Shown here piece after piece: positions 14,271-31,450 of a DNA stretch of 64,000 bases. The notes beneath the pieces are model-generated. The model searched no databases and was not told the DNA's origin. It worked only from the letters and a program-made list of their open reading frames with translations. This DNA comes from Polyangiales bacterium (GTDB lineage: Bacteria; Myxococcota_A; Polyangia; Polyangiales; Ga0077539): NCBI GenBank assembly GCA_044229975.1, contig JBGARZ010000001.1, forward strand, positions 640,001 through 704,000, written 5' to 3'. Each line of letters opens with the position of its first letter. The stretch's first letter is position 1. A program made the translations under genes and the position numbers.

Positions 14271-15227
14271 ATGGGACGGTTCGACGAGAGTTCGGTGCTG
14301 GTCACGCGCGGACCTGCCCCGGCCTGGATCGCGGCGTCAGCGGCGACTGCCGTCACGGTGCTCGTGACGCGGGTGGCCGCCTTCAACGGCGGGGTTGCGC
14401 CCGAGTATCAACGGCACGAGTTCTTCCTGACGGGCGCCCTCTTCGCGGTCACCGCGCTCGGCCACACGGCGCTGCTCGCGCTCGTCGCGCGGTTCCGCTC
14501 GACGGTCGTGGGGGTCGCCGCGCTGGTGTTGGGCGCGATCGCCCTGCCGCGGGTTTCCGACGCGCTCCGGCCCTACACCGGGCGGGCGATGGCGGCCGCG
14601 CTGCCTCGCTACTGCGCCGATCTGCCCGAGCTCTGTCCGCCGCCCGCGTGGGACGTCGCGCAGAGCGTCGTCGCGGCCCTCTGTCTCGCGCCCTTCCTCG
14701 TCGCGCTGATGGAGGTGCGCGCCCGCGACGCGCTCGACGGCCGCGCCCGGGTCGCGTGGGCCTCCGGGCTGATGATGATCGTCGCGGCGGGCGTGATCCC
14801 GTGCTTCGGCAGGGCCTCCCCGGTGGCAGCGCCGGTGACGTACGTCGCGGGCGTCGCGCTCATGGCGCTCGCGACGGCCGAGAACGCGAGGCGCCTCGCG
14901 TGGGTCGCCGCGCGGTTGGGCGACGGCGGCGCGTGGATCGTCGAGCGCACGCCGGGCGCCCACGACGGCCTGCGCCCGCTCTGCGCACCCGAGACGCTCG
15001 ACCTGCAAGACGGCGTGCTGGTGGTGCGTGAGAGGGCGCCCAATGCGATGTACCGCGCGGCGCTCCACGGCACGCCCATCGCGACGCTGAGCGTCGACGG
15101 CGGGTCGACGCTGGACGCGATGCGAGGTCGGTTGAGGAAGCAGCGGCGGGCGCTCGCCGTGGCTGCGGTGGGAGCAACGGCGGTCGGGGTCGCGACGCTG
15201 GTGGTGCGGGTCATCCAGGGCTCATAG
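14271..15227 (+). CDS. Multi-pass membrane protein (hypothetical)
   Basis: GGAGG RBS; about 7 hydrophobic segments; GC3-rich frame. Confidence 0.7.
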   Translation: MGRFDESSVLVTRGPAPAWIAASAATAVTVLVTRVAAFNGGVAPEYQRHEFFLTGALFAVTALGHTALLALVARFRSTVVGVAALVLGAIALPRVSDALRPYTGRAMAAALPRYCADLPELCPPPAWDVAQSVVAALCLAPFLVALMEVRARDALDGRARVAWASGLMMIVAAGVIPCFGRASPVAAPVTYVAGVALMALATAENARRLAWVAARLGDGGAWIVERTPGAHDGLRPLCAPETLDLQDGVLVVRERAPNAMYRAALHGTPIATLSVDGGSTLDAMRGRLRKQRRALAVAAVGATAVGVATLVVRVIQGS

Positions 15228-15540
15228 GAGACTCGGCGGGGCACCACCGTCGGCGTGGATCGGCTCTGGTTGCAGACTGCGCTCGGCCCCTATCGCCTCG
15301 CACGGCGCCACAACGCCGCCAGCGCCAGCGTCCACCACCATCCCGTCTCGCGCGCGGCGCCCACCGCGCGGCAGCCGCAGCCCGACACCACCACCGCGCC
15401 CGTCGGCGACGACCGCGAGATCGCGGCAGCGCTCGTTCGGGCAGCGAGCGTACCCTGGGCGAGCGCGCGATCGCGACGAGGTTGATGCAGGACGTCCGGC
15501 TGGGCTTCGACCTGCGCGCCCCGGCCACCTCGGGAGGACC

Positions 15541-16029
15541 ATGAGCACCAACAACAACGCGACGGTCATGTGGAGGGATCTGGAGGCGGCCTACGATCGG
15601 ATGATCGCGAGGGAGGCCCAGTTCTTCCGCTCCTGGAAGGCGGGCGACCTACCAGTCGCCGACGTCGTCGAGGCGGTGCGTCGCTCGCTCGATGCGGGCT
15701 CGTGGGCCGCGTTTCGCTACGCGGACCAACTGGGGCCCGAGGTCGTTCGTGGACTGCTGCCGACCCTCCTCCGGTTCGCCACGGGCGGCGGGATCGTCGG
15801 GCGGTCACACGAGATCATCCTGACGCTCCCGCGGGAGGTCCTCCTGCGCGACGCGGTGCCGACGATCCGCTCGCTGCTGTTCGACGGCGACGACCAGACC
15901 TACTCGTGCCTCATGTCCTTGTGCGAGAGCATCGACCCGGCGCTCGCCACGGAGCTCGCGGCAGAGGCGAGGTCGCACCCCGACCCGGCGGTCCGCGCGG
16001 TCGCGGAGGAGTACGCCGCAGAGGAGTGA
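15541..16029 (+). CDS. Small all-helical HEAT-like protein, probable orphan toxin-immunity protein
   Basis: GGAGG RBS; EIILTLPRE...YSCLMSL...HPDPAVRAVAEEY resembles immunity genes seen next to polymorphic toxins (inference). Confidence 0.55.
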   Translation: MSTNNNATVMWRDLEAAYDRMIAREAQFFRSWKAGDLPVADVVEAVRRSLDAGSWAAFRYADQLGPEVVRGLLPTLLRFATGGGIVGRSHEIILTLPREVLLRDAVPTIRSLLFDGDDQTYSCLMSLCESIDPALATELAAEARSHPDPAVRAVAEEYAAEE

Positions 16030-16118
16030 CGGAGCTGGTAGCGTGCGTCGTGATCGAGCTCGCGCAGGAAGGTCTGGTGAGCGATTCCCGCGGGCGCTCG
16101 CCTGCCGCAGGGAGCGCG

Positions 16119-16578
16119 ATGAGGCGCCTCGCCGGCTACGCCCTGATCGTGGCGACGTGGTGCGCGTCGCGCACGACGGCGTTCGCGCAGTCGGGCGCGG
16201 TGGAGTGCGACTGCGACGCCGAGGTGTGCGTCGCGTACGGGGACGAGCTCCGCGTCGAAGGGACCGTGTCGCGACGGCGCTACACGCTCCACCATCCGAC
16301 GATCGGGCGGATGCCGCAGGAGGTGTACGTGCTGCGCGTCGCTCGCCCGGTCTGCGGCTTTCGCAACGTCGACGGCGGGAGGGTCGACGACAGACCCCAC
16401 GTCCGCGAGATGGTCATCAGCGCGCGGACGGACGACGACCCGCTGCGTCGGCTCGTCGGGCGGCGTGGGCGGTGGCAGGTGCGCGTGTCGACGCGAGACG
16501 GCGTATCCGCTGACCGCGCTCCTCGCGGAGTTCATTAGGTACGAGGCGGTGCGGCGCGGCGGTGCGGTCTTGCGGTAG
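16119..16578 (+). pseudogene. Secreted DUF4431-like protein, probable frameshift near 16490
   Basis: Signal peptide ending AFA-Q; EVYVLRVARPVC...LVGRR. The +1 frame continues ETAYPLTALLAEFIRYE to TAG 16578; the main frame stops at 16538. Confidence 0.4.
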
Positions 16579-16679
16579 GGGAGCGGCGGAGGAGAGCGGT
16601 CAGGGGGACGGTTCGGGGGCTGGGTGCGGCTGGCTGACGCGGCCAGGCGCGACGGCCAAGCGTCGCCGAGCGGTAGCTG

Positions 16680-18047
16680 CTATCGCCAGCGCATCCGAAG
16701 CGCGACACCGTCGTCGCGCATGTTCGGCATCGGGTTCCCCGTGCGCAGGACTGCGCAGAGCGTATCCGTCGGGTCGGGCAGGTCGGCGTAACGGCAACCG
16801 TCCGCGGGCAGCGAGACGCCTCCGCGTGGCTCGACGCGGTCCCCCCGCGAGACGCGGTACCGCCACATCGCTCGCAGCGCCAGCGCCACGTCCATGCCGG
16901 TGGCGAGTGCGCGACTGTAGCCACCCGTGAGCCACTCGCCGTCGACGCGGAACAACGCCGCGCGTCCCGCTTCGAGACCGAACGACAGCGCCTCACGGAA
17001 GGCGGAGGGGATCGCGGGCACGCGTCGTTCGCGGGCGTGACGCCCCGACAGCCATGTCACGCACCGGCCCATGTATCCCCATGGGTGCAAGCGTTCCATG
17101 AGCTCCCGGGCGAGGCGGTCGGCTTCCATCAACGACGGCAGACACCCGGCCACCAGCCACGCGTCGCGCACCGTGCACGGGGTCGTTCCGCGGACCCAGC
17201 CGTCCCGCCCGCACTCCGGGCACGACTCCGCGCGATCGACGGGCGACGCCCATCGGTGGGGCCGATCACGACGCAGCGGACACACCACGCCGATCGCGCG
17301 GGCGTCGCCGTCGAACAGGTCCAGCGGCACGTCACCCTGGCGCGCGAGCTGCTGCCAGTACGCGCCCGCGTCGCCCCGCCACTCCGGGTGCTCGACGCGG
17401 CGGGAGATGGGCGTACGGAGTCGGCGGGACCGCGGTCGATCGGCCGCCGTCTCCTCGATGAGCGCGACGAGGCGGTGGCCCTCGCGGAGCGCCCCGTCGA
17501 GCCACGACTCGAACCACGCGAAGAAGCCTTGCTCGCCATGGGTCCCGCCGAGTGGCTCGCTGTGCTCCTCCCAGAAGGTCCAGATGTGACCGCGCGTGGG
17601 GCCGTCGAGGACGATCCCGTCGAAGCCGGCGCAGCCGTGGTGGGCGAGCAGGAGCACTCCGGCATCGAGGGTGCCGACGAAGGGCGCTGCGAGGCGGGAG
17701 GGTGGCCGAAGCGGCACGTCCAGGGCTGTGTTCGGGGCGAGGCGGTGGCTGTCCTTCGGGGAGGTCACCTCCCCGACCCGGCCGAGCTGGAAGAGGCCGT
17801 AGCCGGGGCCTGCGATGCCGTCCGCCACTTCGGTGACGAAGCGTCGGTACTCCGCCGGGAGCTCGACGCCGACCGCACGCTCGAAGGCCGCCACGTCGCC
17901 CTCGGGGAGCGGCGGTCGGAACCGGAACCGGTGCCCCTCCCACCCGTGGTCGAAGCTCGGGGAGAGGGTCGCCGCGCCCGCCCGCGCGACCAGGCGGAGC
18001 AACTCGTCACGCTTGTCGCGAATCCGCCCAATCGCTCCGTCGGTCAT
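16680..18047 (-). CDS. SMI1/KNR4 (SUKH) immunity-family protein with extra C-terminal Cys-containing domain
   Basis: PPLPEGDVAAFERAVGVELPAEYRRFV...GPGYGL...LAHHGC...GHIW...FFAWFESWLD; later CPECG. Confidence 0.82.
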   Translation of the reverse strand: MTDGAIGRIRDKRDELLRLVARAGAATLSPSFDHGWEGHRFRFRPPLPEGDVAAFERAVGVELPAEYRRFVTEVADGIAGPGYGLFQLGRVGEVTSPKDSHRLAPNTALDVPLRPPSRLAAPFVGTLDAGVLLLAHHGCAGFDGIVLDGPTRGHIWTFWEEHSEPLGGTHGEQGFFAWFESWLDGALREGHRLVALIEETAADRPRSRRLRTPISRRVEHPEWRGDAGAYWQQLARQGDVPLDLFDGDARAIGVVCPLRRDRPHRWASPVDRAESCPECGRDGWVRGTTPCTVRDAWLVAGCLPSLMEADRLARELMERLHPWGYMGRCVTWLSGRHARERRVPAIPSAFREALSFGLEAGRAALFRVDGEWLTGGYSRALATGMDVALALRAMWRYRVSRGDRVEPRGGVSLPADGCRYADLPDPTDTLCAVLRTGNPMPNMRDDGVALRMRWR

Positions 18048-18222
18048 CCGCGAATGAGGATGCCCCAGGTCGTCGAGCACGTATCGCAACAGCCCGCGTT
18101 GATTGCATGGACAGCCCCCGCGCCGTGGTCCATCGCTTGGCGCGCCGACGAGCACCGCCCTCCGCGACGCCCCGCAGCGCGCTTGCCTTCATGCTGACGG
18201 CCGCCGGGTGCTTCGCGCTCAT

Positions 18223-18297
18223 GAACCCAGAGTGCGACGTGCCCCTCTCGGTGACGTCTGTCGGAAACTCCACGCGCACCCGTTGGAGAGCTCGCTG
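18223..18297 (+). repeat. Dispersed intergenic repeat, copy A
   Basis: GACGTCTGTCGGAAACTCCACGCGCACCCGTTGGAGAGCTCGCTG; aligns with copies B-E. Confidence 0.8.
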
Positions 18298-18311
18298 AGC
18301 GACACGACCCG

Positions 18312-18884
18312 TCACCCGCCCGCGTCGTCACCCTCGTACACGTCGTCGACCGCGAGCCTCCCCCCGAACTCCGGCAACGCGAGAACCTCGCCCGCCGTGA
18401 CGACGGTGAGCGTCCAGGTGCCGTCGGGGTTGCGGCGGTAGTGCTCGATGCGGCGCCGCCCGACGGACACCATCAGGTAGTGCCGCAGCGACTCGAGGAG
18501 CTGGTAGTCGGCGAACTTGTCGCCGCGGTCGAAGCGTTCGGTCGAGGGCGAGAGCACCTCGACGATCAGGGTCGGGTTGGTGACGGCGACCGTGTCGACG
18601 GCATCGCGTGCGAGGGGGCCGCATACGACCGTGCCGTCGGCGTAGTAGGCGTTGCCTGACGCGGGGACGCGCACCTTGAGGTCGGACGAGAAGACGCGGC
18701 ACGGCCCGCCCCGCATGAGCTGCCGCAGCTCCGCGCCGACGGAGAGCGCGAGCCGCGCGTGCTCCGGCTCGCCGCCGGCCATCGCGCACGCGAAGCCGCC
18801 GACGAACTCGTGACGCACACCCGACGAGCGCTCCAGCGCGAGGTACTCGGCGTAGGTGGTCCTCAACTTCTCCGCCGCGCTCGT
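18312..18884 (-). CDS. Uma2 (DUF820) family endonuclease, apparent ACG start
   Basis: YAEYLALE...RHEF...MAGG..EH...SDLKV...YADGTVVC...IVEVLSPSTERFDRGDKF. TACCAT lies 8 nt before ACG 18884; TTG 18866 is the alternative start. Confidence 0.88.
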   Translation of the reverse strand, partial: TSAAEKLRTTYAEYLALERSSGVRHEFVGGFACAMAGGEPEHARLALSVGAELRQLMRGGPCRVFSSDLKVRVPASGNAYYADGTVVCGPLARDAVDTVAVTNPTLIVEVLSPSTERFDRGDKFADYQLLESLRHYLMVSVGRRRIEHYRRNPDGTWTLTVVTAGEVLALPEFGGRLAVDDVYEGDDAGG

Positions 18885-19078
18885 CGGCCGCGATGGTAGG
18901 CGACGCGCGTGGTGGTGAACAGTCGCAGGGCGACGACTCGCCCGCGAGACCGACGGTCGGCCCCCATCAACAACCTGGCGTCGATCTCCAGCAGGTCGAC
19001 CAGCGGCCCAGGGAAGGTCACGCGCCAGCGGAACCACCTCACCCGCCCGTCGCGGCTCTGCCTCGCCTCAAGCATCGC

Positions 19079-19603
19079 CTACGGCACGCCCGCGGGGCGC
19101 GGGGGGAGAGTCGCCTCCCAGTCGGCGATGTGGATGTGTCGCATCCGTTCTCCGGGGCGGAGCGTGATCACGATCGACACGTGATGCGCGCCGCGGCAGC
19201 AATCGCCGCGATGCCCGCATGTCGCCATGCACGCAACCGAATCGGTGAATCCACCCGCACGCGTTCGTCCGGCGGCGTCGAGCGCGTAGCCGACGAGCAC
19301 ATAGGTTCCGGCGGGTAGGCCCCGCACGGCGAATCGATTGTCCCGGGCGATCGTGACGAAGTACGCGCACGATCCGGGTGCGTCCTGACGGATCGCGACG
19401 ACCTGCACCGGGAGCCGAACGCCGACCGGGCGATAGAACGACCCTTCGATGGTTGCAGTGTCCGCTGGCGTGCGCGGCGTGCACGTCGTCGTGGCGGTGG
19501 CCATCGCAGTCGCGCTCGGCGAAGGCGACTGCGCCCACGCGGGTGCCGCCCGTTGCAGGGAGAGCAACACGACCGAGGCGACGGGCAGCGGCTGGGTGTT
19601 CAC
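19079..19603 (-). CDS. Secreted protein with carboxypeptidase-regulatory-like (prealbumin) fold
   Basis: Signal peptide AWA-Q; IEG...FAVRGLPAGTYVL; Cys-rich insert. Confidence 0.6.
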   Translation of the reverse strand: MNTQPLPVASVVLLSLQRAAPAWAQSPSPSATAMATATTTCTPRTPADTATIEGSFYRPVGVRLPVQVVAIRQDAPGSCAYFVTIARDNRFAVRGLPAGTYVLVGYALDAAGRTRAGGFTDSVACMATCGHRGDCCRGAHHVSIVITLRPGERMRHIHIADWEATLPPRPAGVP

Positions 19604-19752
19604 GAAGCGAGGGTGACATCGCTGCGGCGAGGAGGTTCCGCGAGGCCGCGCATCACGGCGCCGCTCGGGCGCTCACGCACGCGTTGCGGGCGAGCGCACT
19701 CGACCTGCGCCGAGTGCGGGACGAACACGTCGAAGTCGCGCTCGTCATCGCG

Positions 19753-19834
19753 GACCGAACTCCCATGTCTACGAAGTACCTCTCTCGTTGACGTGCGCCG
19801 GGAACTCCGCGCGCACCGTTGGAGAGTTCGCTGG
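19753..19834 (+). repeat. Dispersed intergenic repeat, copy B
   Basis: GACCGAAC...CTCTCGTTGACGTGCGCCGGGAACTCCGCGCGCACCGTTGGAGAGTTCGCTGG. Confidence 0.8.
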
Positions 19835-19884
19835 CTCCTGCCACCAGCCTCGATCGGTTCATGGTCACTCGCCCGCGACGCCTC

Positions 19885-20940
19885 CTACGCCACGCTCCCG
19901 CGGACGGCCGTCGCGACCTTCACCCACTCGCCGCCCGCCGAGCGCTTGTAGATCACCGACTGCCACACCGTGCGGTCGTCCTCCTCCGCGACGATCTCCG
20001 GAAACCCGTCGCCGTCCAGGTCGAACACCGCGATCGGGCGGACGAACGACCCGTCGCTGCGGGGCCTCACGCGCTCGACCTGCCAGTCGCCCCTCTCCCA
20101 CCGCGCGATGATGATGCCGGCCCGCCCGAACACCAGCCGGACGGTCGGCGCCCCGTCGTCCCGGCCGCGCGGCGCGTCGGACGCCCGGAAGAAGAGCGCC
20201 CGGCTGTGCAGCGGAAGGGGCACCGGGTCGTGGTCGCCCGTCTCCTGCGCGTGGAGGCGGTCGTCCAGGGTGAGCGCCGCGGCCCACTGGTCGAGATCGG
20301 GGTCGTGCCGCGCCGAGGGCGGCGGGCGCCACGGCCCGGACGTCGACGCGAACAGCCCCGACGACCCGTGGTGCTCTGGAACCAGCGTGAGCTCGTCGCA
20401 GTTGGTGACGTCGTAGTACTGGCCGTCCCAGAGCGTCGACTCGCCGACGACCTGACCCCAGCGGTCGATCTCGCGCCAGCGGGTTCCGTGGACGGCGAAG
20501 GGCTCGCAGCAGGGCTGACCCGCGCGCTCGATGCCGCGCGCCGTGACGCGCGCCAGCGGGACGTGCGGCGCGTGCGACAGCCACATCGTCACGCCCGCGC
20601 CGACGGGGCACCGCGGCGAAGCGGGCCGCGACGTCGGTAGCGTCGGGGGCCACTCCGCGTAGAGGAAGTCGTCGCCGTCGAAGAGGGACATCGGGTGCCG
20701 CAGGGTGCGCGGGTTGAGGTCGATCGCCGCGGCCAGACCGCCGTCCACCGCGGAGGCGTCAGGGGCCGACGCGTCGCTCGCGGGCGCGACGGCGACCGAC
20801 GCGTCGACCCGCTGGACGCGGCGCGCGGGCGACCGGTGGGGGTGACAGCCGACGGCTACCAGCGCGAGCCACGCCCCGACGCCCGCGACGCTGAGGGCGC
20901 AGGGCATTCCGGTGCGTAGGCTCTCCCGGCGCGCGTCCAT
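19885..20940 (-). CDS. Lipoprotein with FG-GAP/VCBS-like motif
   Basis: VAVGC lipobox; DLDGDGFPEIV; TACCGT 6 nt upstream of ATG 20940. Confidence 0.7.
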   Translation of the reverse strand: MDARRESLRTGMPCALSVAGVGAWLALVAVGCHPHRSPARRVQRVDASVAVAPASDASAPDASAVDGGLAAAIDLNPRTLRHPMSLFDGDDFLYAEWPPTLPTSRPASPRCPVGAGVTMWLSHAPHVPLARVTARGIERAGQPCCEPFAVHGTRWREIDRWGQVVGESTLWDGQYYDVTNCDELTLVPEHHGSSGLFASTSGPWRPPPSARHDPDLDQWAAALTLDDRLHAQETGDHDPVPLPLHSRALFFRASDAPRGRDDGAPTVRLVFGRAGIIIARWERGDWQVERVRPRSDGSFVRPIAVFDLDGDGFPEIVAEEDDRTVWQSVIYKRSAGGEWVKVATAVRGSVA

Positions 20941-21124
20941 CGGCCGACGGTACACCGCGCCCCCCGATCGCCTGGCACGAACCGGATCGGCCCGCTGCGA
21001 GTGGTCGAGCCGCTGCTGCTTGCCGGGCTGCGATGGGGCTGTGCGGCTTCGAGCAGTGAGCCACGCGCGAGGGCCGATCGGAGGTCCAGCGGGGCACGAT
21101 CATCGGCACGGATCTGCTGCGGTT

Positions 21125-21207
21125 GACCGAACGCCCAGACCGCGAGGTTCACCTGTCAGCGACGTACACCGGGAGCTCAGCGCCCGCCCGCTGGAGAGCT
21201 ACGCTGG
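21125..21207 (+). repeat. Dispersed intergenic repeat, copy C
   Basis: GACCGAAC...AGCGACGTACACCGGGAGCTCAGCGCCCGCCCGCTGGAGAGCTACGCTGG. Confidence 0.85.
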
Positions 21208-21273
21208 CCGCCGCCAGGCCCGCCGACGCGGTGTGCTCCGACGCCAACGCGCTCGTCTGCCGCTCGCGACCCG

Positions 21274-22266
21274 CTACGCCCCGCGCTCGAACCGCAGGCG
21301 CAGCACCTCGTCGTCGAGCTCGCGAGCGATCGCGAGCGCCCGCCGCCGCGCGTCGGCCCCCTCCTCGCCGCCGACGATGCGCCCGAGCATCTGGAGCGCC
21401 ATCGCGCGCATGCGGATGTGGCCACCGTCGCCCGCGTGCCGACACGCCTCGCGGGCCAGCGCCGCGCCCTCATCGGCGAAGCCCTGCTTCCAGCGCGCGT
21501 AGGCGAGCCCGTTCGCCCGTCGACAGCGCGCGAAGGCCGGCGCCCCCTCCGTCGGGATCAGGTGGTACAGCGCCTCCGCGGCGGCCGGGTCGGGCGGTCG
21601 ACCGCCGCGGGCGCGGTTGCGCTCGTACGCGTGGTGGTCGATCCAGCGGGCGTGCAGGCACGCGCGGTCGTGCGCGGGCATCGGGTGCGCGAGCAGGGGC
21701 TCGGCCTCGGCCAGCAGCGATGGCACGCGCGCGGGGTCGTCGCGGCTCGCGAGGAAGGCCTCGACGAGGAGGTGCTCGGCGCGCGCGTCGGCGGGCGCCC
21801 GCGACAGCACCGGGCGGACGCGGGCGAGGTGCGCGCGGGCGGCGTCGCGGTCGTCCGAGCGCAGCGCGCAGGTGACGTGGGCGAGCGCGAGGAAGACGTG
21901 CGAGGCGAGCTCCTCGCTCACGGGCGGACGGTCCCAGAGGCGCACGAGGTCGACGCACAGCGGCACCGGGAGGTCGGTGTAGCGCGAGTGGTACGAGCCC
22001 ATCCAGCGGGCACGCTCGGAGAGGGCGCCGGGCAGACCGAAGGCCGCCAGCGCCCGCGCGCCCCACGCGCCGCCGTCGCCCTGGCCGCGGGTGCGCAGGC
22101 GGCGCAGGGCGCGCTCGATCGAGGCCACGTCGTCCTCGTAGCCGCGGAGCGCCGAAAGGCGCCCGGCCACGGCGGCCAGCGAGCCCTCGCGGGCGACGAG
22201 CCACGCGACGTATTCGCCCCAGGAGAAGCCGGCGGCGTAGCCATGTCCGAAATCGTGTCCGGGCAT
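21274..22266 (-). CDS. Hypothetical helical protein (possible N-terminal HTH + TPR-like repeats)
   Basis: GC3-rich ORF, Ala/Leu/Arg helical pattern, TPR-like C-terminus; divergent from the exonuclease. Confidence 0.65.
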   Translation of the reverse strand: MPGHDFGHGYAAGFSWGEYVAWLVAREGSLAAVAGRLSALRGYEDDVASIERALRRLRTRGQGDGGAWGARALAAFGLPGALSERARWMGSYHSRYTDLPVPLCVDLVRLWDRPPVSEELASHVFLALAHVTCALRSDDRDAARAHLARVRPVLSRAPADARAEHLLVEAFLASRDDPARVPSLLAEAEPLLAHPMPAHDRACLHARWIDHHAYERNRARGGRPPDPAAAEALYHLIPTEGAPAFARCRRANGLAYARWKQGFADEGAALAREACRHAGDGGHIRMRAMALQMLGRIVGGEEGADARRRALAIARELDDEVLRLRFERGA

Positions 22267-22319
22267 CGGGGAGGCCCGGAGGATATCAACGGTCCGGGCG
22301 CACGAAGGAGCGCCATCGC

Positions 22320-22883
22320 ATGACCACCCGACCCGCCTTCTTCCTCGTCATCGACCTCGAGGCGACCTGCGACGACACCGGTGCCATCCCCCCGAAGATC
22401 ATGGAGATCATCGAGATCGGCGCCGTGCTCGTCGACGCCGCCTCCCTCGCGCCCGTCGCGGAGTTCTGGACCTTCGTGCGTCCGGTGATCCGCCCGACGC
22501 TCACGCGGTTCTGCACCGGGCTCACGACCATCGCGCAGGCCGACGTCGACGCGGCGCCGACCTTCCCCGCGGCCGTCGAGGCGCTCGGCCGCTTCGTCGG
22601 CGACCGCGACGCGCTCTTCTGCTCGTGGGGCGACTACGACCGCAACCAGTTCGCCATCGACGCGGCGCGCTGGGGCGTCACCCTCCCGCTCCGCGGCCAC
22701 ATGAACGTCAAGAAGCGCTTCTCCGCCGCCCTCGGCGAGACCCAGCGTTACGGCATGTCGGCCGCTCTCGAGCGGCTCGGGCTCCCGCTCGTCGGCACGC
22801 ACCACCGGGGCATCGACGACGCCCGCAACATCGCGCGCATCCTCCCGTACGGCGTCGGCCGGGTTCCCATTCCCGGCCGGTGA
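22320..22883 (+). CDS. DEDDh 3'-5' exonuclease, ERI-1/KapD family
   Basis: VIDLEATC, EIIEIGAV, FVRP, LTRFCTGLTTI, SWGDYD, HHRGIDDARN. Confidence 0.93.
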   Translation: MTTRPAFFLVIDLEATCDDTGAIPPKIMEIIEIGAVLVDAASLAPVAEFWTFVRPVIRPTLTRFCTGLTTIAQADVDAAPTFPAAVEALGRFVGDRDALFCSWGDYDRNQFAIDAARWGVTLPLRGHMNVKKRFSAALGETQRYGMSAALERLGLPLVGTHHRGIDDARNIARILPYGVGRVPIPGR

Positions 22884-23166
22884 GCGCCCGCGTCGAGGCC
22901 GAGCACCCGCTCGCGCGTCTCGCCGAGCGCGGTGAGCATGAGGATGGGCGTGCTCACTCCGGCGCGCCGCAGCTCGCGGCAGACGGAGAGGCCATCGAGG
23001 TCGGGCAGCATCCAGTCGAGGGCGATGACGTCGTAGAGGCCGTCCGCGGCCTGGGCGAGGGCGTCGGCGCCGCGGCGCAGGTGTCGGCCGCGAAGCCCTC
23101 CTCGGCGAACACCCTGGCGAGGAAGCGCGCGACCTTCCGGTCGTCCTCGACGACGAGCAGCTTCAT
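22884..23166 (-). pseudogene. OmpR-family response regulator remnant (frameshifted, truncated)
   Basis: MKLLVVEDDRKVARFL...ADTC, frameshift near 23075, then GADAL...LDWMLPDLDG...PILMLTA...LGLDAGA. Homology ends at the exonuclease stop. Confidence 0.88.
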
Positions 23167-23383
23167 CGCGCCGACCTTGGCGCCTGTTCGAACCCTGCAC
23201 AGGTGCACCATGCACCTTGCACACGTGTCACGGACTCCGCGCTGACTCGTCGCCGCAGCGCTGCCGCGCACCTTCGCCCACGCGCCCGTATGCGAGTCAC
23301 CTTCGCGCCGGTCACCCAACGCGCACCTGCGGCATCCGTGGACGCGTACGTCGGCCCGGCGTTCGCTGTGCACACGGATCGTT

Positions 23384-24559
23384 GTGAAGAACTTGCTCGC
23401 ACCCAGGTGGCCGCGTCGCTTCGCGCTCGCCGCCCTCATGTCCGTGACGGCCGCTTGTGGCAACGAGGTTGAGCCCATGCGCGACCACGGGTGGCAGGAC
23501 GACTCGGGCGGCGGCAACCCCGACATGGAGGCCACCGGGAGCGCCACCGTGGGACCTCCCATGCAGCGCGACGCGGGGCAGGTCCCCGATCAGCCCGCGG
23601 TCGACCCTGCGGACGCGTCGCCCAACGGCAACAACCCGGGGCCGGACGCAAACGCCGTCGCGAGCATCGCGGGGCGGTCGTGTGGGCGCGGCCTCATGTG
23701 CAACGGCCACTCGTGCTGCGAGACCATCTCCGTCCCTGGCGGAACGCTCCTCTACGGTCGCTCGGTCGCAGGCCAGGACGCGTACAACGTCCCCAACCCG
23801 GAGGAGCTGCCCGAACACCCCGTGACGATCCCGGACTTCTATCTCGACCGCTACGAGGTGACGGTCGGGCGCTTCCGCAAGTTCGTCGAGGCGTGGACGG
23901 GTGCCCCCATTCCGGCTGGCGCTGGCGCCCACCCCGCGGTGCCCGGCAGCGGCTGGCAGGCCGAGTGGAACCGTCAGCTCCCGCCGGACCGCGACGCCTT
24001 TATCGGTGCGCTCCACTGCGCCGGGGGCCTTGAGTCGTGGCACGACGAGGAGGGACCCGACGACGCGCGGCCCATCGGTTGTCTCGACTGGTACGAAGCG
24101 TTCGCGTTCTGCATCTGGGATGGTGGTCGCCTGCCCGTCGAGTCGGAGTGGGAGTACGCCGCGGCCGGCGGCTCGCAGAACCGCCTGTACCCCTGGGGCT
24201 CCGACGAGCCCGACTGCACCCGGGTTCGCCCCTTCGGCAACTGCGCCGGGGCGTCGGACATCCTCGCTCCGGTCGGCACCCGCCCCGCGGGCGCGGGCCT
24301 CTGGGGTCACGAAGACTTCGCGGGCGGTGCCATGGAGTGGGTGCTCGACTACTACGAGAACTACGTCGTCGACCTGCCCGGCCTGCACGCCCGCCTCGAC
24401 CCGCCGTACCGCGCCATGTCGCGGCGCGCGCTGCGGGGTCTGAGCTTCCACGGAGGCGGCGGCGACATGCGCAACACCGACCGCGGCAACGCGCTGCCCA
24501 GCTCCCGCTACGAGCGCTTCGGTGTCCGCTGCGCGCGCAACGTCGCGCCGACCCCGTAG
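23384..24559 (+). CDS. Formylglycine-generating-enzyme (SUMF1/PvdO) family lipoprotein
   Basis: TAAC lipobox; EHPVT..FYLDRYEVT, WYEAFAFC.W..GRLPVESEWEYAA, YPWG, GVRCAR. Confidence 0.9.
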   Translation: MKNLLAPRWPRRFALAALMSVTAACGNEVEPMRDHGWQDDSGGGNPDMEATGSATVGPPMQRDAGQVPDQPAVDPADASPNGNNPGPDANAVASIAGRSCGRGLMCNGHSCCETISVPGGTLLYGRSVAGQDAYNVPNPEELPEHPVTIPDFYLDRYEVTVGRFRKFVEAWTGAPIPAGAGAHPAVPGSGWQAEWNRQLPPDRDAFIGALHCAGGLESWHDEEGPDDARPIGCLDWYEAFAFCIWDGGRLPVESEWEYAAAGGSQNRLYPWGSDEPDCTRVRPFGNCAGASDILAPVGTRPAGAGLWGHEDFAGGAMEWVLDYYENYVVDLPGLHARLDPPYRAMSRRALRGLSFHGGGGDMRNTDRGNALPSSRYERFGVRCARNVAPTP

Positions 24560-24584
24560 CGCGAGCTCGGTTGCATCACCCATG

Positions 24585-24638
24585 AGCGACGTACACCGGG
24601 AGCGCCCCGCCCGGCCGCCCGCTGGAGAGCTACGCTGG
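24585..24638 (+). repeat. Dispersed intergenic repeat, copy D
   Basis: AGCGACGTACACCGGGAGC...CCGCCCGCTGGAGAGCTACGCTGG, nearly identical to copy C. Confidence 0.9.
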
Positions 24639-24683
24639 ATCTTCAGATACGATCACAGGTAGGCGTCGTCCCGGATCCGAGTC

Positions 24684-25253
24684 ATGACTTCCAGCGATCT
24701 CGACGAGCAGCTTAGCAGCAAGGAGAGTCTCTTCCCGGAGCTGTTCAAACACTTCCGGGCTGGAGGTTGGTCTGAGACGTGGCGCGCCCGACCCTCCGAG
24801 GTTGAACGCGAGCCTGTCGACTGGGTAGTCCCATTCCCGATGCACGAACTCGCGAGGGCAATACTGGAACGCTTCCTTGGGCGGCAGTTCCGGACTGTGG
24901 ACGTGCATTTTGGGACTTCGCATCACTGCACGGCCAAGAGCCTGCAGGTGATCAAGCCCTATGAGGTCGAGGAGTACCTCTTGGGAGAGCGCCCCCCTAC
25001 GAAGAGTCGCCCTCCGGCGTTCCCCGTGTGCATGTCGAACTCTTTCGTCATGTTCCTGCGCGAGGACTGGTCGACGGTCATGGTGAGCTACTGCTGGGCG
25101 GAGTTCGTAGTCGTCGACAACCTGTTCGAGATTCTGAACGCGTTCACCACCCACACGTCTCCGTTCCTTCGCGACACGACCCTCTGGACTCTCATCACGG
25201 AGCCCAGCCAGGTTCCGGACCGCGTCCAGAAGACCATCTACCTCACGCCCTGA
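24684..25253 (+). CDS. Divergent SUKH-3-like immunity protein (lower GC)
   Basis: FRAGGW...R, MHELARAILERFLG, PAFPV...FLREDWSTV, NLFEILNAF follow the SUKH-3 pattern by eye; codon usage atypical for the window. Confidence 0.55.
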   Translation: MTSSDLDEQLSSKESLFPELFKHFRAGGWSETWRARPSEVEREPVDWVVPFPMHELARAILERFLGRQFRTVDVHFGTSHHCTAKSLQVIKPYEVEEYLLGERPPTKSRPPAFPVCMSNSFVMFLREDWSTVMVSYCWAEFVVVDNLFEILNAFTTHTSPFLRDTTLWTLITEPSQVPDRVQKTIYLTP

Positions 25254-25432
25254 CTGCACGCGTGCCCTGACGATCCGGGACCGAGAACCCCGAGCCGAGC
25301 GTGAGCTGCTCGACGTCGCGCAGGCCGGGGATCTCCCTCGGCGAGGCTCTCCAGCGGCAGTCAGTTGGTAGGGGGAGAGTCGTACATTGCCGGGCTGTTG
25401 CGGCGATCGCGCGGGAGCATGCAACAACAACT

Positions 25433-25476
25433 GGGAGCGCCGCGCCCGCCCGTTGGAGCGCTGGAGAACTCGCTGG
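25433..25476 (+). repeat. Dispersed intergenic repeat, copy E (partial inverted copy at about 25340-25357)
   Basis: GGGAGCGCCGCGCCCGCCCGTTGGAGCGCTGGAGAACTCGCTGG; upstream GCGAGGCTCTCCAGCG is its near reverse complement. Confidence 0.7.
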
Positions 25477-25521
25477 CGCGTCGAACGGAAAGCGCGTCCT
25501 CGGGGCCCCGCCGAAAAGCGA

Positions 25522-25706
25522 CCGCCCACGCCCGCGGTACGCGGACTTACCCGGAGGGACGCACCCGCCCACGCCCGCGGTCGTCGACTCCGTCGTAGGG
25601 TTAAGGGTGCGGGGAGCAGACGACCGCGGGCGTGGACGGGCGCTTCCCTCCGGGTAAGTCCGCGTACCGCGGGCGTGGACGGGCGCGTCCCTCCGGGTAA
25701 GTCCGC
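25522..25706. repeat. Palindromic element built from 43-bp tandem units
   Basis: Left arm 25522-25585 (about 1.5 units) and right arm 25619-25706 (about 2 units, inverted) around a 33-nt centre. Unit: CCGCGGGCGTGGACGGGCGC(T/G)TCCCTCCGGGTAAGTCCGCGTA. Confidence 0.92.
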
Positions 25707-25868
25707 ATTGGGAGGCGTGAGTGGAGCGCGCCGGAGCGTCCCCGCTGCTCCGTCCGCACCTTCCGCCCTCTCGCGAAGCCCCCGTCGCCCGCCGTCCATC
25801 CCGTCCGACGTCCTCCGTCCACTCCGCGGCCCGTCCCCACTCGCCGCCATCGGCCACCGGAGCGTCCG

Positions 25869-25899
25869 GGACGCGATGGAAGCCCCTCCCATCGCGTCC
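25869..25899 (-). terminator. 11-bp stem hairpin downstream of the helical-protein gene
   Basis: GGACGCGATGG-N9-CCATCGCGTCC, 27 nt after the stop at 25927; no U tract. Confidence 0.5.
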
Positions 25900-25926
25900 A
25901 GAACACATCCACCTACATCCGCAGGA

Positions 25927-26685
25927 CTACCCCTTGGCGGGACCATCGACCGGCGGGGTCACGGGCTCATCCTCGGTCGCCGCGGTGGCCCGGCCGATGG
26001 CCTTGTGCACCCGCGCGGCGCTCTCCGCGTCGCCCAGGAACTCGTACAGCCCCTGGAGGATCCGCGCGAGCCCCACGCGCCGGGCGCGCGCCACTCGCAG
26101 CGTCTTGTCGCGCTTCACCAGCGCGGCCGACTCCTCGCGCGCCTCGCGGGCGAGCGCCTTCAGCGTCTTGTCGAGCGCCGCGGCGTCGTCGGCGATGCCC
26201 GCGACGAGCTTCGGCACGTCGAGCGTCACGCCGCCGCGGGTGGCCTTCGGCGGGTGTGTCTTCACCCGCGCCAGAACGCTTCCTGCCAGCGCGATGAGCG
26301 CGGCCTCGCGCTCGGGGGTGGCGCCGACGAAACCGAGCTCCGTGACGACGGTCTCGTCGCACACCGAGTCGATGGTCTTGCGCAGGCCCACGAGGCGCGC
26401 CGAGAGGGAACCACGCTGCCGTTCGCGGTCGGCGAGGAGGGGCGCGTCGTCGGCGCGCTCGGCCTCCAGCGCGCGCTGCGCCACCTCGGCGTCGCGCGCG
26501 GCGGCGTCGGTGGAGCGGGCGAGCCACGCGAGCACGGGGCCCAGCAACGGGACGCGCTCCTTGGCGTGGGCGACCTCGGCGAAGATCTCGGCGACCTCGT
26601 CGGCGACGCGATCGCCCGCGGTCTCCACGAGCTTCGACAGGTCGAGCGAGGCTTCGGCCGTGCGTGCGGTGTCCTTGGCAGTCAT
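25927..26685 (-). CDS. All-alpha coiled-coil hypothetical protein
   Basis: GGGAGG RBS; ERADDAP...LGFVGATP...LAREAREE...GLYEFLG pattern, a family I recall from myxobacterial genomes (unverified). Confidence 0.75.
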   Translation of the reverse strand: MTAKDTARTAEASLDLSKLVETAGDRVADEVAEIFAEVAHAKERVPLLGPVLAWLARSTDAAARDAEVAQRALEAERADDAPLLADRERQRGSLSARLVGLRKTIDSVCDETVVTELGFVGATPEREAALIALAGSVLARVKTHPPKATRGGVTLDVPKLVAGIADDAAALDKTLKALAREAREESAALVKRDKTLRVARARRVGLARILQGLYEFLGDAESAARVHKAIGRATAATEDEPVTPPVDGPAKG

Positions 26686-27006
26686 CGATGCACCTCCCAG
26701 TGTGTGAGCGCCGCAGCTCCCTCGCGCGGACGCTTGTCGAGTAAAGCGGTAACAGGGAGACGCGGCGCTGGTGAAGGGCGAACGCGCCAACGGGGCACTT
26801 CGTGGGGGCGCTGTGGGAGCGGCGGGGCGTGGGCCTACATCGAAAGCGGTGGTGTCCGTTGTGACCTTGAGAGGCAGGCCATTCAGGGGCAGTTGAGTCG
26901 CGCCGCCTCGTCCGGTCGCAGACCTCCCACCCGTGACGTTGCAGTCCCTCATACCCCGACGCACCCGATAGAGCCCTGCGCCGATCCGTGCTCCCCTCCA
27001 ACGCGC

Positions 27007-27693: not shown

Positions 27694-29163
27694 CTACCGA
27701 TCGCTCGCGAAGACCACCTTCCCCAGCCGCGCCTCCGCCTCCGTCGCCGCCTCGCGGTCCTGCGCCGCGGCCGCGTCGTCGGCCTCCATCTCGGCGAACC
27801 GATACTGCACCTCGCCCGCCTCGCTCACCACCGCGTCGCCCCCGAGCTCCGCCACGCGCACGGACACCTCGCGCGACGTCGGCTCGCGCCCCGTCGCCAC
27901 GCGCACCGCCGTCCGCAGCGCGGCGTCGTCCACCGCCTCGCCCTTCGCGGCGTGCGTGACCACCTCGCGCAGCACACCCAGCCGCGCCTTCTCTTCGTCG
28001 AGCGCCTGCTGCTCTCGCCGACGCCACAGCGCCCGTGCGATGGGCAACACGAACAGCGCCGCCGAGAACACCACCGGAACCAACCCCAGCACCAGCGGAA
28101 CCCCACCCGGCACCGGAACGTACGGCTGCGTACGATCGAGCATGCGCGCGAGGTTCTCAAGCGTGACGTCGTTGGCGATGGCCCACAGACCCGCCAGCAG
28201 GTTGAAGCCGTTGAGCGCGGCGATGCCCGCGTTGGCGCCGCCGCTGTTGCCCGTGAGCGGTGGCAGCACGGTGGGGCGCTGCCACGCCGGGGCCGGTCGA
28301 GCCGTCGGCGCGCCGTCTGACGCAGCGGTCTTCCGCAGCGCTTCGAAGCGGTAGTAGATGCCGCCGCTCTCGCTGACCTCGACGGTTCCGTCGTGGTCGA
28401 GCATCAGCCTCGCCATCAGCGGGTCGGCCTCCGAGCGCGGGAGACCCGTCACACGCATCACGTCGGCGAGGGCGATGCGCCCCTTCAGCGCGCGCACCTC
28501 GGCGAGCACACGCGCCCTCTCCGCGTGGGGATCGGGCGCCGTCGCCGGAGGTCCCCACACGAAGCGGTTGACCTTCTCGTAGAGCGGAACCTCCTCCTCT
28601 TCGGCCGCCGCCCGCATGCGCCGCTGCGCGCGAGGCGAGACCACGCCGTAGTCGTCGTAGCGGTGGTAGGCGAGCGGCGAGAACGGGTGAAACGTCCACC
28701 ACGCCGCCTCGGCGATCAGCCGCAGCAGGCCACCAATGATCGAGGAGCCCGGTCCGTCGTCGCGGTCGCTGCCGCGCCCCGAGGAGAGCGCGATGCCGAT
28801 GGCGACGAAGGCCAGCGCGTAGCCGACGATCGCGATGAGCAGCCACGCGCGCACCAGCAGCCGCCCCGCCGCCGCGAGCACCGAGCCCGCGCGCGCCATC
28901 CAGCGCCCGACGGTCTCCTTCGTCTCCCAGGGCTTCGTGAACCCGTGCGGAAACACATGCACGAGGTCGCCCGCCTCGGTCACCCGATACTGCCCACGGT
29001 ATTCGCTCGCGAGCCACGTGAGGCCGGCCTCCGCGTCGCGTAGCGCGAGGCCGCTCCGCACCGAAGCGTCGGCCACCGTGAGCAACGGAAGCGGTTGGGG
29101 CAGCGTGCGTCGCAGCACCGCGGCCGCGGCGGCGGGGTCCATCGAAGAGGGGGCGTCAGGCAT
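27694..29163 (-). CDS. Membrane protein with three repeated modules (At5g03900-like, cyanobacteria/plastid family)
   Basis: TVADA...GL..A...L...G...V(T/S)E.G...(F/Y).F module three times; TM segments; FVWGP; LTGN. Confidence 0.7.
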   Translation of the reverse strand: MPDAPSSMDPAAAAAVLRRTLPQPLPLLTVADASVRSGLALRDAEAGLTWLASEYRGQYRVTEAGDLVHVFPHGFTKPWETKETVGRWMARAGSVLAAAGRLLVRAWLLIAIVGYALAFVAIGIALSSGRGSDRDDGPGSSIIGGLLRLIAEAAWWTFHPFSPLAYHRYDDYGVVSPRAQRRMRAAAEEEEVPLYEKVNRFVWGPPATAPDPHAERARVLAEVRALKGRIALADVMRVTGLPRSEADPLMARLMLDHDGTVEVSESGGIYYRFEALRKTAASDGAPTARPAPAWQRPTVLPPLTGNSGGANAGIAALNGFNLLAGLWAIANDVTLENLARMLDRTQPYVPVPGGVPLVLGLVPVVFSAALFVLPIARALWRRREQQALDEEKARLGVLREVVTHAAKGEAVDDAALRTAVRVATGREPTSREVSVRVAELGGDAVVSEAGEVQYRFAEMEADDAAAAQDREAATEAEARLGKVVFASDR

Positions 29164-29259
29164 CGGAGGTCCGGGCCCGATCGTGCCCGCTCCCGGGCTG
29201 CGAAGCCCGTGCAACCGCCTTGACACTGCGTTCGCCCGCGAGATAGGTCGGCCATGGCG

Positions 29260-29280
29260 TTGTGAGAACGGCTCCCACAA
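29260..29280. promoter_or_regulatory. Palindromic operator TTGTG-N11-CACAA (Fur-like), site 1
   Basis: TTGTGAGAACGGCTCCCACAA lies between TTGACA (29220) and the AGGAG RBS. Confidence 0.65.
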
Positions 29281-29317
29281 TCAGCCGACGCCCCTTTCCG
29301 CCTCAGGAGAATTGTTG

Positions 29318-31450
29318 ATGCACTTTGCGCCATCGCTCACCGAGGCCGTCACGGCGCTCGGCCGACCGCTCTCCTCGTTGCTCGACCCGAGCACGCGCGT
29401 GTTCGGGCCCTTTCTGCTGGGCGCGGCGGGCATCGCGCTCGTCGCGTTGGTGCTGCGCGGGATGAGCCTCGGCCTGGCCGCGCGCGAGCTGCTGTCGCCG
29501 CGGGTGTGGCTGCACCGATCGGCCCTCGCGGACTACCGGCTCATCGCCGCCCGCGCCGCGCTGCGGGCGCTCCTCGTCGGCGTGCGCGGTGTGTCGACGC
29601 TGGTGGTCGCGGCCCTCGTGATGTCGTGGCTGCGGCGTCACCTCGGGCTGCCCGGCGTGCACGCGTCGGCGGTGCTGGTGGGCGCGGCGTTCGTGCTGGC
29701 GGCCTTCGTCGCGGAGGACGCGGTGCGCTTCGCACTGCACCGGGTGATGCATCGGGTGTCGTGGCTGTGGGAGTTTCACAAGGTGCACCACTCGGCGGAG
29801 GTGCTCACGCCCTTCACCCTCTACCGAACGCACCCCGTCGAGGCGGCCATCAACGGCGCCGGCAACACCCTCGCCGTCGGCCTCGTCACGGGCCTCTTCG
29901 CGTGGACCTTCGGGCCGTCCATCCGCGCCTGGGAGATCTTCGGCGTCGACGCCATCGGCTTCGTGTGGACCCTCTGCGGCGCCAACCTCCGCCACTCGCA
30001 CGTCTGGCTCTCGTACGGCCCGCGCGTCGAGCGCTTCTTCCTCAGCCCCGCCCAGCACCAGGTGCACCACAGCACCGACCCCCGCCACGTCGATCGCAAC
30101 TTCGGCACCGCGCTCTCCCTCTGGGACCGCCTCGCCGGTTCGCTCTACGTGACTTCTCCCCAGCCCGAGGCGCTCACCTTCGGTCTGCCCGCGGGTGAGG
30201 CAGGCCCCGCGCACACCGTCGGGTCGCTGCTGCTCTCGCCCTTCGCCGCCGTGGCCCGTCGCGCTCGCGCCGTGATCGCTCCGCGCCCGTCGCCGGTGCG
30301 CCTCGGGATCGCCCAGCGCTTCGCCCTCGTCGCCGCCGCGATGGTGATGTCCGCCTGCACCAAAGAGGAGCCCTTCGACCGCGTCACGCTCCTCCAGGCC
30401 TTCGGGCGTTGCACCGTCACGACGTACGACCAGTTCCAGGCGACGACGCCGGGGCTCGTGGCCGCGACGACCGCCTACGCCGCCGCGCCGACCGACGCCA
30501 ACCGCGCCGCCGCTCGCACGGCGTGGGAGCGCGCCATCGACCTCTGGGAGCAGGCCGAGCTGCTGCGCTACGGGCCCGCGGCGACCTTCGACACCATCGG
30601 CGGTCAGAACCTCCGCGAGGGCATCTACGCGTGGCCCGACGTCAACCGCTGCCTCATCGAGCAGCAGGTCGTCTCGCGCGCCTACGACACGGCGATGTTC
30701 AGCAGCCTCTCCACCAGCACCCGCGGCCTCGCGGCGCTCGAGTACCTGCTCTTCTACGAGGGCGCCGACAACGCCTGCCAGGCCACCGACGCCATCAACG
30801 CGATGGGAACCTGGGCGGCCCTCTCGCCCGACGAGCTGCGACAGCGCAAGGCCGCGTACGCGCGCGCCATCGCCGTCGACGTCGAGGCCAACGCGCAGCG
30901 CCTCATCGCGGCGTGGCACCCCAACGGCTTCCAGAACCAGATCGAGACCGCCGGGCTCGGCAGCTCGCTCTTCGCGACGCAGCAGGTCGCCTTCAGCGTC
31001 ATCGCGGAGGGTGCGTTCTACCTCGACACCGACGTGAAGGACCTGCGCCTCGGGCGCCCGCTCGGCCTCGTCAACTGCACCACGGGCACCTGCCCCGGCG
31101 CGCTCGAATCGCAGTGGGCCGACCGCGGCCGCGAGCACCTCCGCAACAACATGCGCGGCCTGCGCACGCTCATGGAGGGCTGCGCCGCGGGCAACAACCA
31201 GGGCTTCGACGACCGCCTCGAGGCCGCCGGCGCGGGTGCGCTCGCGACGCAGCTGCGCGCCGACCTCGACGCCGCCGACGCCGCGATCAACGCCATCCCC
31301 GGCACCAGCCTGCGCGATGCGCTCGCCAACAACCCCGCCTCGCTGATGCGCGTGCACACCGCCATCAAGGAGCTCACCGACTTCCTGAAGATGGAGTTCT
31401 CGACGACGCTCCAGATCACCTCGGAGCGGGTCGCTGGGGACAACGATTGA
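29318..31450 (+). CDS. Sterol desaturase/fatty-acid hydroxylase fused to an imelysin-family domain
   Basis: His boxes HRVMH, HKVHH, RHSH, HQVHH; internal lipobox VMSAC (Cys 30356); ARTAW, YAWP, RGLAALEYLLF, ESQWA, GDND end typical of imelysins. Confidence 0.85.
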   Translation: MHFAPSLTEAVTALGRPLSSLLDPSTRVFGPFLLGAAGIALVALVLRGMSLGLAARELLSPRVWLHRSALADYRLIAARAALRALLVGVRGVSTLVVAALVMSWLRRHLGLPGVHASAVLVGAAFVLAAFVAEDAVRFALHRVMHRVSWLWEFHKVHHSAEVLTPFTLYRTHPVEAAINGAGNTLAVGLVTGLFAWTFGPSIRAWEIFGVDAIGFVWTLCGANLRHSHVWLSYGPRVERFFLSPAQHQVHHSTDPRHVDRNFGTALSLWDRLAGSLYVTSPQPEALTFGLPAGEAGPAHTVGSLLLSPFAAVARRARAVIAPRPSPVRLGIAQRFALVAAAMVMSACTKEEPFDRVTLLQAFGRCTVTTYDQFQATTPGLVAATTAYAAAPTDANRAAARTAWERAIDLWEQAELLRYGPAATFDTIGGQNLREGIYAWPDVNRCLIEQQVVSRAYDTAMFSSLSTSTRGLAALEYLLFYEGADNACQATDAINAMGTWAALSPDELRQRKAAYARAIAVDVEANAQRLIAAWHPNGFQNQIETAGLGSSLFATQQVAFSVIAEGAFYLDTDVKDLRLGRPLGLVNCTTGTCPGALESQWADRGREHLRNNMRGLRTLMEGCAAGNNQGFDDRLEAAGAGALATQLRADLDAADAAINAIPGTSLRDALANNPASLMRVHTAIKELTDFLKMEFSTTLQITSERVAGDND

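Follow-up and report, generated by a model that had tools for sequence, protein, structure and literature searches.

What are the short repeats that separate accessory genes in an island of the genome of a Polyangiales bacterium? The window considered here is a stretch of 64,000 nt (GenBank assembly GCA_044229975.1, contig JBGARZ010000001.1, positions 640,001 to 704,000), for which a first-pass annotation had described five same-strand hairpin repeats and had taken them for the sites of a new class of single-strand recombination system, or for a transposable miniature, that shuffles defence genes. We propose, and think it probable, that they are decayed, non-autonomous 133-nt ends of an ISCR-like element, carrying the origin oriIS, and that they likely mark the joints left when captured DNA was assembled into co-oriented arrays by a Y2 HUH transposase working in trans. 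The source genome is designated G000, the contig of the window C32, other contigs C3, C14, C15 and so on, and the relatives G001-G008.

A unit that carries the oriIS of an ISCR-like element

The five copies are present where they had been placed, all of them between called genes. Their conserved core, CCGYTGGAGAGYT, searched for with at most one mismatch, matches the window eight times against 0.27 expected, and eight matches were reached in none of 100 shuffles. The core consensus of the first-pass annotation thus describes a real repeat but covers just one half of a 133-nt unit, which is complete in copy C and truncated in copies A, B, D and E. A profile built from the five window copies found many more in the genome, and their extension gave a common unit of about 135 nt. 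With the final profile, scored on the genome and, as a control, on the reversed genome, we obtained 33 matches at E ≤ 0.05, which together with copies D and E make 35 full or partial copies on 11 contigs; the reversed genome gave no match. The repeats are therefore not confined to the island, as had been supposed. At E < 0.01, the G000 copies comprise 18 full, 6 left-only and 6 origin-only ones.

IS91-family transposases are present in G000. An intact gene with Y2_Tnp and Zn_Tnp_IS91 domains (C14:204879-206390) is followed on the same strand by a copy of the element, as is a transposase fragment on C15, and a profile made from G000 copies alone found the element behind transposases in other Myxococcota/Deltaproteobacteria records. 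For a tally we kept 38 distinct loci that reach the C-terminus of the transposase with enough downstream DNA, short and duplicate loci being dropped. The element lies behind the transposase at 18 of these 38 loci, that is, at 17 of the 25 with at least 60% transposase identity and at one of the 13 below 60%, in a comparison whose later profile was partly seeded on the same loci and in which several loci share genomes. A second IS91-type transposase of G000 (L010, C19:433729-435814) is paired with a tyrosine recombinase gene and lacks this element.

The full unit of about 133 nt begins some 110 nt past the transposase stop codon and ends in oriIS, with the motif GTTGG…CCTAT-NNN-C at 235-270 nt after the stop. 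The best plasmid matches of the C14 transposase are ISCR1 transposases (38% identical over the full length, E 7e-83), and both share the motifs LERLCRY…RPAV and HxH. The ISCR1 oriIS, as read from a plasmid (L109), runs …TTCCTATACCC and lies 232 nt after the stop; for ISCR27 a distance of 236 nt is reported (PMC8894482). Because its position behind the transposase, its end motif and its distance from the stop match those of ISCR1 and ISCR27, the unit is the terminal right-end segment, with oriIS, of an IS91/ISCR-type element, and the idea of a new class of site is not supported.

An alternative already raised by the first-pass annotation is that one paralogous coding segment left the repeats behind as remnants, and one frame of the window's plus strand is indeed open in 27 of 30 copies. 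However, none of 17 non-zero net indels is a multiple of three, conservation has no codon periodicity (0.71, 0.76 and 0.75), and the start of the unit past the transposase stop codon likewise speaks against a coding origin. We regard this alternative as refuted, with next to no probability left to it.

A sequence-only model of the unit was run on 8 congeners, 16 other genomes of the family and 16 other families. The element occurs in all 8 congeners, with 3 to at least 82 copies per genome, and once each in 3 of the 16 other genomes of the family, whereas none of the 16 other families has it. Of these 41 genomes, 29 gave matches to related transposases.

Element ends, arrays and their cargo

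The two ends of the unit are unlike each other and have no terminal inverted repeats; a short target duplication was not found, the flanks differing in the junction lists. Copies were classified as linked or unlinked by the tblastn position of the transposase. At the left end, position -1 is T (T|CA) in 20 of 21 transposase-linked copies and C (C|CA) in 87 of 96 unlinked ones, which have G at -2 in 74 of 96 cases, and this T/C rule is valid in both sequence subfamilies, CAGCG and CAAGG. Beyond the origin, +1 is a pyrimidine in 108 and +2 a C or G in 96 of 127 copies; these are base preferences alone, and the strict tetranucleotide beside oriIS, as in IS91, IS801 and IS1294, is not present in the 127 copies. 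Two head-to-tail dimers (L140 and L136) join the origin directly to the left end, which is the junction expected of a circular miniature.

Both element ends are fixed to the base. At C15:183170-192315, three copies (87-95% identical) accompany a split Uma2 gene, of which 231 bp are duplicated with 99% identity; one duplicate is bounded by the left end, the other by the origin end of an element, and both cuts could be fixed to the base because the duplicate was compared with the uninterrupted sequence. The fixed internal left end sets the unit apart from the products of random decay.

These ends also bear on the suggestion that the repeats are repetitive extragenic palindromic (REP)-like elements or a classical MITE (miniature transposable element with inverted repeats) of about 140 bp, moved by a REP-associated tyrosine (RAYT)/Y1 or a DDE transposase. 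G000 has four Y1_Tnp matches, and copy E with the inverted partner that had been described for it looks like a pair of inverted ends. The Y1_Tnp matches, however, lie on C23, C26 and C34, with none on C32 and none adjoining a copy; the ends of the unit are unlike, and target duplication is absent. The partner of E is real, but it is a short left-end fragment on the other strand, so that the arrangement consists of two left-end fragments, and the supposed degenerate partner of A (18158-18179) is no element arm but coding DNA inside a truncated EamA-like gene start. An origin of this kind is extremely improbable.

Across 20 copies, pairing in the inner stem that had been said to co-vary amounts to 74%, and one pair is both-sided (4 cells). 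Its score is exceeded by that of a slid control (0.145 against 0.121), and RNAalifold does not recover the stem. A hairpin, imperfect and subterminal, does exist next to the internal left end, but its covariation is weak; a similar palindrome has been described beside terIS (PMC13181058). Upstream of the transposase no terIS could be defined, and conservation there stops at a promoter-like box.

Concerning such boxes, a CCGCCGCCAC repeat box was found at 19 sites of G000 and at one in each control, including C14:204770, C36:66263, C25:22596 and C38:981166. It is followed by GGCAC[GA] at 15 of the 19 sites (background 5%), and the combination is presumably a sigma-54-like site; a relaxed pattern was unspecific (10 real against 5 control matches). 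The box lies upstream of the ISCR-like transposase, recA, radC, comEC and Uma2-like genes, which makes its sites a candidate DNA uptake/repair regulon. As a terIS the box upstream of the transposase was rejected because it is found before many unrelated genes.

Clustered copies point in one direction. In G000, the two copies are no more than 10 kb apart in 14 neighbour pairs, where 1.1 would be expected, and 11 of these pairs are co-oriented; 41 of 45 neighbour pairs in congeners are co-oriented among the matches listed (150 of 397, with 140 rows from congeners). Co-oriented copies are mostly 0.6-5 kb apart. Over 20 stretches, picked for holding several copies, median copy identity is 0.90 within a stretch versus 0.62 to other contigs and 0.59 to other genomes. 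Many congeners have co-oriented arrays in which copies 97-100% identical separate chunks of DNA, many of them truncated and foreign to the host. For example, G002:C9 holds five stand-alone copies behind an intact transposase, four of which are 97-100% identical to the transposase's own end, and G008:C230 has the same layout. Replichore bias, tried as the cause of the co-orientation, is unconvincing (23/35).

Such a layout raises the question whether an integron cassette array is at hand, with the repeats as atypical attC sites on which the genome's IntI acts. G000 encodes an IntI above the curated TIGR02249 cut-off (L183, C4:248132-249067), some copies have CCAAC…GTTGG boxes, and the spacing resembles that of cassette arrays. 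An attC site has paired R''/R' boxes and a crossover at G|TT, folds on the bottom strand into a long imperfect hairpin with extrahelical bases, and directly follows an intact open reading frame of the same direction. Here, the breakpoints are not at G|TT: on one side they fall 11 nt outside the left box, on the other 17 nt past the G of GTT, and an AAC/GTT or AGC/GCT box pair occurs in just 4 of 30 copies. No long hairpin (z -2.0 to +2.1 in 16 copies) and no consensus fold were seen, no element copy is near intI, and the cargo genes are cut and on either strand, while the unit sits behind transposases. The sites are thus neither attC-like nor REP-like; the attC explanation is largely refuted and very improbable.

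For the flank test, the flanks of 68 stand-alone copies were joined and compared with G000 and the fetched loci, a limited database. It gave no clean empty site, only one weak 70% span and two dimer artefacts; tblastx spans of the joined flanks, considered as empty sites, were mostly 28-44% identical or self-matches and were discarded, though a few simple insertions may exist. Many flank matches stop at the junction, and the two flanks of a copy usually come from unrelated loci. This agrees with the expectation that copies stand at breakpoints between unrelated DNA and that relatives have cassette-like co-oriented arrays.

In the young G002 array the cargo is 81-92% identical to resident loci, with several matches ending at the element's base, and adjacent cargo pieces match six different resident contigs. 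Most cargo of the young G008 and G004 arrays has no resident match. In G007, the cargo between two ends is in one case colinear with a resident locus and 87-90% identical to it, the elements there being equally diverged, and G001 has one 98% match, at a contig end. Where junction flanks in G000 have a close resident match, they are 79-95% identical to it, with the exception of the 99% Uma2 case.

Among 65 cargo open reading frames called, 59 were scanned, of which 21 have a Pfam match; five of these are incomplete domains next to an element. Among the genes that adjoin copies are truncated ones for rhomboid, aminotransferase, Lon, phosphoesterase and aldolase, and cargo genes lie on both strands. 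The cargo is not mainly made up of defence genes, as had been assumed: generic PADLOC models are matched by 2 of 9 window proteins tested in the element span 15220-25476, and array cargo includes truncated metabolic genes. At L143, L157 and L152, ordinary metabolic fragments are accompanied in the cargo by BrnT, a ParE-Phd pair and GmrSD.

A proposed capture mechanism and what weighs against it

IS91 and IS801 initiate at oriIS, form bottom-strand circles and, by premature termination, right-end miniatures; read-through captures upstream DNA, the transposase also works in trans, and deletions occur whose border at the origin is fixed (PMC13181058, PMC3189936, PMC6354349, PMC5737581). Circles of ISCR1 are thought to be rescued by homologous recombination (PMC6834847), and transposition of an ISCR element had not been demonstrated as of 2018 (PMC6218425). 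For the present family we propose a similar course. The transposase would nick oriIS and often terminate at the internal site 133 nt in (T|CA), freeing a miniature, the left end of which would be joined to target DNA at (G)C|. A later round from the origin of the miniature could read into the flank and stop at a loose pyrimidine-led site, giving a circle of cargo plus miniature. A resident copy would be the point of entry for this circle, through the action of the transposase at the origin junction or through RecA, so that an array would grow in one direction. If the first insertion took place on transient foreign DNA, simple insertions would be lacking and the cargo would be foreign. As regards the first-pass annotation, its suggestion that the repeats are sites of single-strand transposition, on which an HUH enzyme encoded at another place acts, is supported.

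It is possible, though in our view doubtful, that in this Myxococcota genus the ISCR-like HUH transposase works with its fixed 133-nt origin miniature as an integron-like platform without an integrase, by which fragments of incoming foreign DNA would be captured and added singly at a resident origin, the transposase being co-regulated with DNA uptake and repair. As a sign of such co-regulation, the upstream box common to the transposase, recA, radC and comEC is suggestive only; the SOS control of ISCR transposases is a precedent for a coupling to stress (PMC13393415).

Several points weigh against capture by the transposase. Most genomic IS801 fragments were attributed by Bardaji et al. to rearrangements and not to one-ended transposition (PMC3189936), and the origin-less copies A, B, D and E fit such an origin, whereas the capture model does not predict them. 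The evidence for rolling-circle transposition through circles is indirect and consists of the two dimers. A profile match is lacking at 20 of the 38 transposase loci, and the covariation of the subterminal hairpin is weak. The joining of the left end in the second step is unseen because no empty/filled pair with a simple insertion was found, and the target rule is not uniform because G precedes the origin-side cut in two junctions whose uninterrupted allele is known. No cargo was found in a second array with both of its boundaries unchanged, and short-read assemblies conceal identical duplicates. In the older arrays (G007, G000) the cargo is about as diverged as the elements, so that capture of resident DNA fits equally, and these data would also be accounted for if finished arrays had been imported from a donor.

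Alternatively, real one-ended products may have inserted simply, and the mismatched flanks and the arrays may have arisen later from origin-anchored deletions and homologous recombination in plasticity regions; blocks would then move between species by other means, and no capture platform would exist. IS801 does make deletions with a fixed origin border, and its fragments are recombination substrates (PMC6354349, PMC3189936). Half copies are common in G000, as counted above, cargo is often truncated, and cargo with 81-92% identity to residents would likewise be expected if a block had come in from a congener. On the other hand, there is not one clean simple insertion among the 68 stand-alone copies, even in arrays whose copies are 97-100% identical, the neighbouring cargo of one young array matches six resident contigs, and replichore bias is a poor account of the co-orientation. 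In view of this evidence, we judge simple insertion with later rearrangement to be unlikely, and retain capture by a trans-acting transposase as the probable origin of the arrays.

The window cluster and known systems

With these results at hand, the window cluster is a decayed fossil instance of the system (Table 1). Its pieces are about 67-90% alike, and four of the six lack the origin; the origin-less copies are best read as later deletions or nested insertions. At L021, an origin is inserted into an opposite-strand copy. To the five copies described before we add a sixth, co-oriented piece, an origin half that had been overlooked; it supplies the stop codon of the open reading frame 14271-15227. 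No transposase was found on C32, and Rfam gave no match in the window.

Table 1. Pieces of the 133-nt unit and adjoining genes in the window
Feature	Position	Strand	Remarks
Sixth piece, origin half	15220..15272	-	ends CTCCTATGAGC|; co-oriented with the other copies
Truncated EamA-like gene start	18109..18225	+	contains the supposed partner of copy A
Copy A	18225..18297	-	left half alone, origin lost
Uma2-family endonuclease gene	18312..18890	-	adjoins copy A; Pfam PF05685, E 1e-33
Cargo gene, protein without assigned function	19079..19603	-	between copies A and B
Copy B	19753..19833	-	left half alone, origin lost
Copy C	21073..21206	-	only complete miniature right end in the window; model positions 1-132, E 2e-24
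Cargo chunk: response-regulator fragment and formylglycine-generating enzyme (FGE)-sulfatase gene	22884..24575		88-93% identical to C3:33878-35502; ends at copy D
Copy D	24576..24637	-	left half alone, without origin
Cargo gene, SUKH/SMI1-like protein	24684..25253	+	between copies D and E
Left-end fragment, "inverted partner" of copy E	25339..25357	+	1 mismatch to core; downstream of the SUKH-like gene
Copy E	25430..25475	-	short left-end remnant with internal 8-nt insertion; E 0.07, weak alone

Copy C is 82% identical to the transposase-linked copy C14:206498-206632; it begins GC|CAGCG and its origin end, CCGATCGGC|, is a degenerate form of the CCTAT-NNN-C consensus. It shares a one-base insertion with copy D, to which it is 90% alike. 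Copy D starts exactly where the similarity to the C3 paralogue of the preceding chunk ends; the response regulator in that chunk (22884-23170) is a frameshifted fragment. Copy A, whose left end is preceded by T as in transposase-linked copies, is joined via a short GAAC microhomology to the truncated EamA-like gene start, which is 83% identical to C28:11087-11174.

Two cargo genes recur at elements elsewhere. DNA 96% identical to 19079-19603 lies in G005:C706 between two copies and downstream of transposase pieces, while the one long neighbouring gene found in G005 is 78% identical. The gene between copies D and E has, as had been noticed, a low G+C content (0.604 versus 0.70-0.77 in its neighbours); its product is SUKH/SMI1-like by ESM features (0.94) and matched neither Pfam nor PADLOC, and 150 other genomes of the order gave a single homologue (44%), which in G004 sits between two full copies. 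There is no orthologous empty locus to compare, because the window genes are dispersed over different contigs in all 8 congeners. Contigs from six sequencing runs contain the region in short pieces, with no listed joint that credibly links two element ends.

Additionally, some features of the window are unrelated to the element. A palindrome of about 190 nt (25507-25697; 85-nt arms, 86% complementary) belongs to a second, unrelated repeat family with many genome copies, and 25516-26955 has a 92% paralogue at C33:394221-395614. Fatty-acid hydroxylase and imelysin domains share one open frame at 28835-31450, and low-complexity coding tandem repeats, Pro/Ala-rich and Thr/Asp-rich, lie at 8048-8370 and 34045-34224.

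Among known systems, IS801 of Pseudomonas syringae has miniature right ends (229, 360 and 679 nt) and ori801 fragments that, like the present units, are continuous right-end pieces with an intact origin and a defined internal left end (PMC3189936, PMC6354349). Its transposase likewise acts in trans and upstream DNA is recruited, with one to eight origins per plasmid (PMC3189936, PMC6354349). In contrast, the family described here has one dominant left end, units of about 120-135 nt, a maximum of at least 82 copies per genome and co-oriented, near-identical chromosomal arrays, and it follows (G)C| on the left and a pyrimidine on the right instead of a strict tetranucleotide. ISCR1 in complex class 1 integrons has a like origin motif and stop distance and variable DNA at oriIS (PMC6834847, PMC6218425), but its repeating unit is the whole 2-kb element with the integron 3' segment rather than a 133-nt end; here, no integron is linked and the cargo does not consist of resistance genes. 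The ISCR28 "sandwich" (Yuan et al. 2024, via PMC12772301) has a gene between two sequential origins, one of them a remnant; instead of this one sandwiched gene, the present family extends over the genus and forms arrays of three to six units. Integron cassette arrays and clusters of attC sites lacking integron-integrases (CALINs) are alike in having co-oriented homogeneous sites between accessory DNA, sometimes downstream of the enzyme gene, but the enzyme here is an HUH transposase and not a tyrosine recombinase, an attC fold is missing, and the cargo does not end precisely at genes.

Publications thus already exist on miniature ends of IS801, on multiple ori801 copies and on the ISCR28 sandwich. 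Neither this Myxococcota family nor chromosomal arrays of oriIS miniatures of fixed length are the subject of any paper that we found in the open literature, though subscription papers, ISfinder, figures and supplements may describe such elements. The present case contributes an internal left end that is exact to the base and follows the T/C rule, as well as the dimers, the foreign cargo of young arrays and the link to a promoter.

Gene capture by ISCR elements is a long-standing open question, and the model for it rests on clinical sequences. The present family offers more than 100 natural junctions, base-exact ends, dimers that match the predicted circle junction, an intact transposase and a minimal substrate of 133 nt, which make initiation, termination and array growth directly testable. 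Integron-like arrays can arise without an integrase, and annotation of integrons and insertion sequences would miss them.

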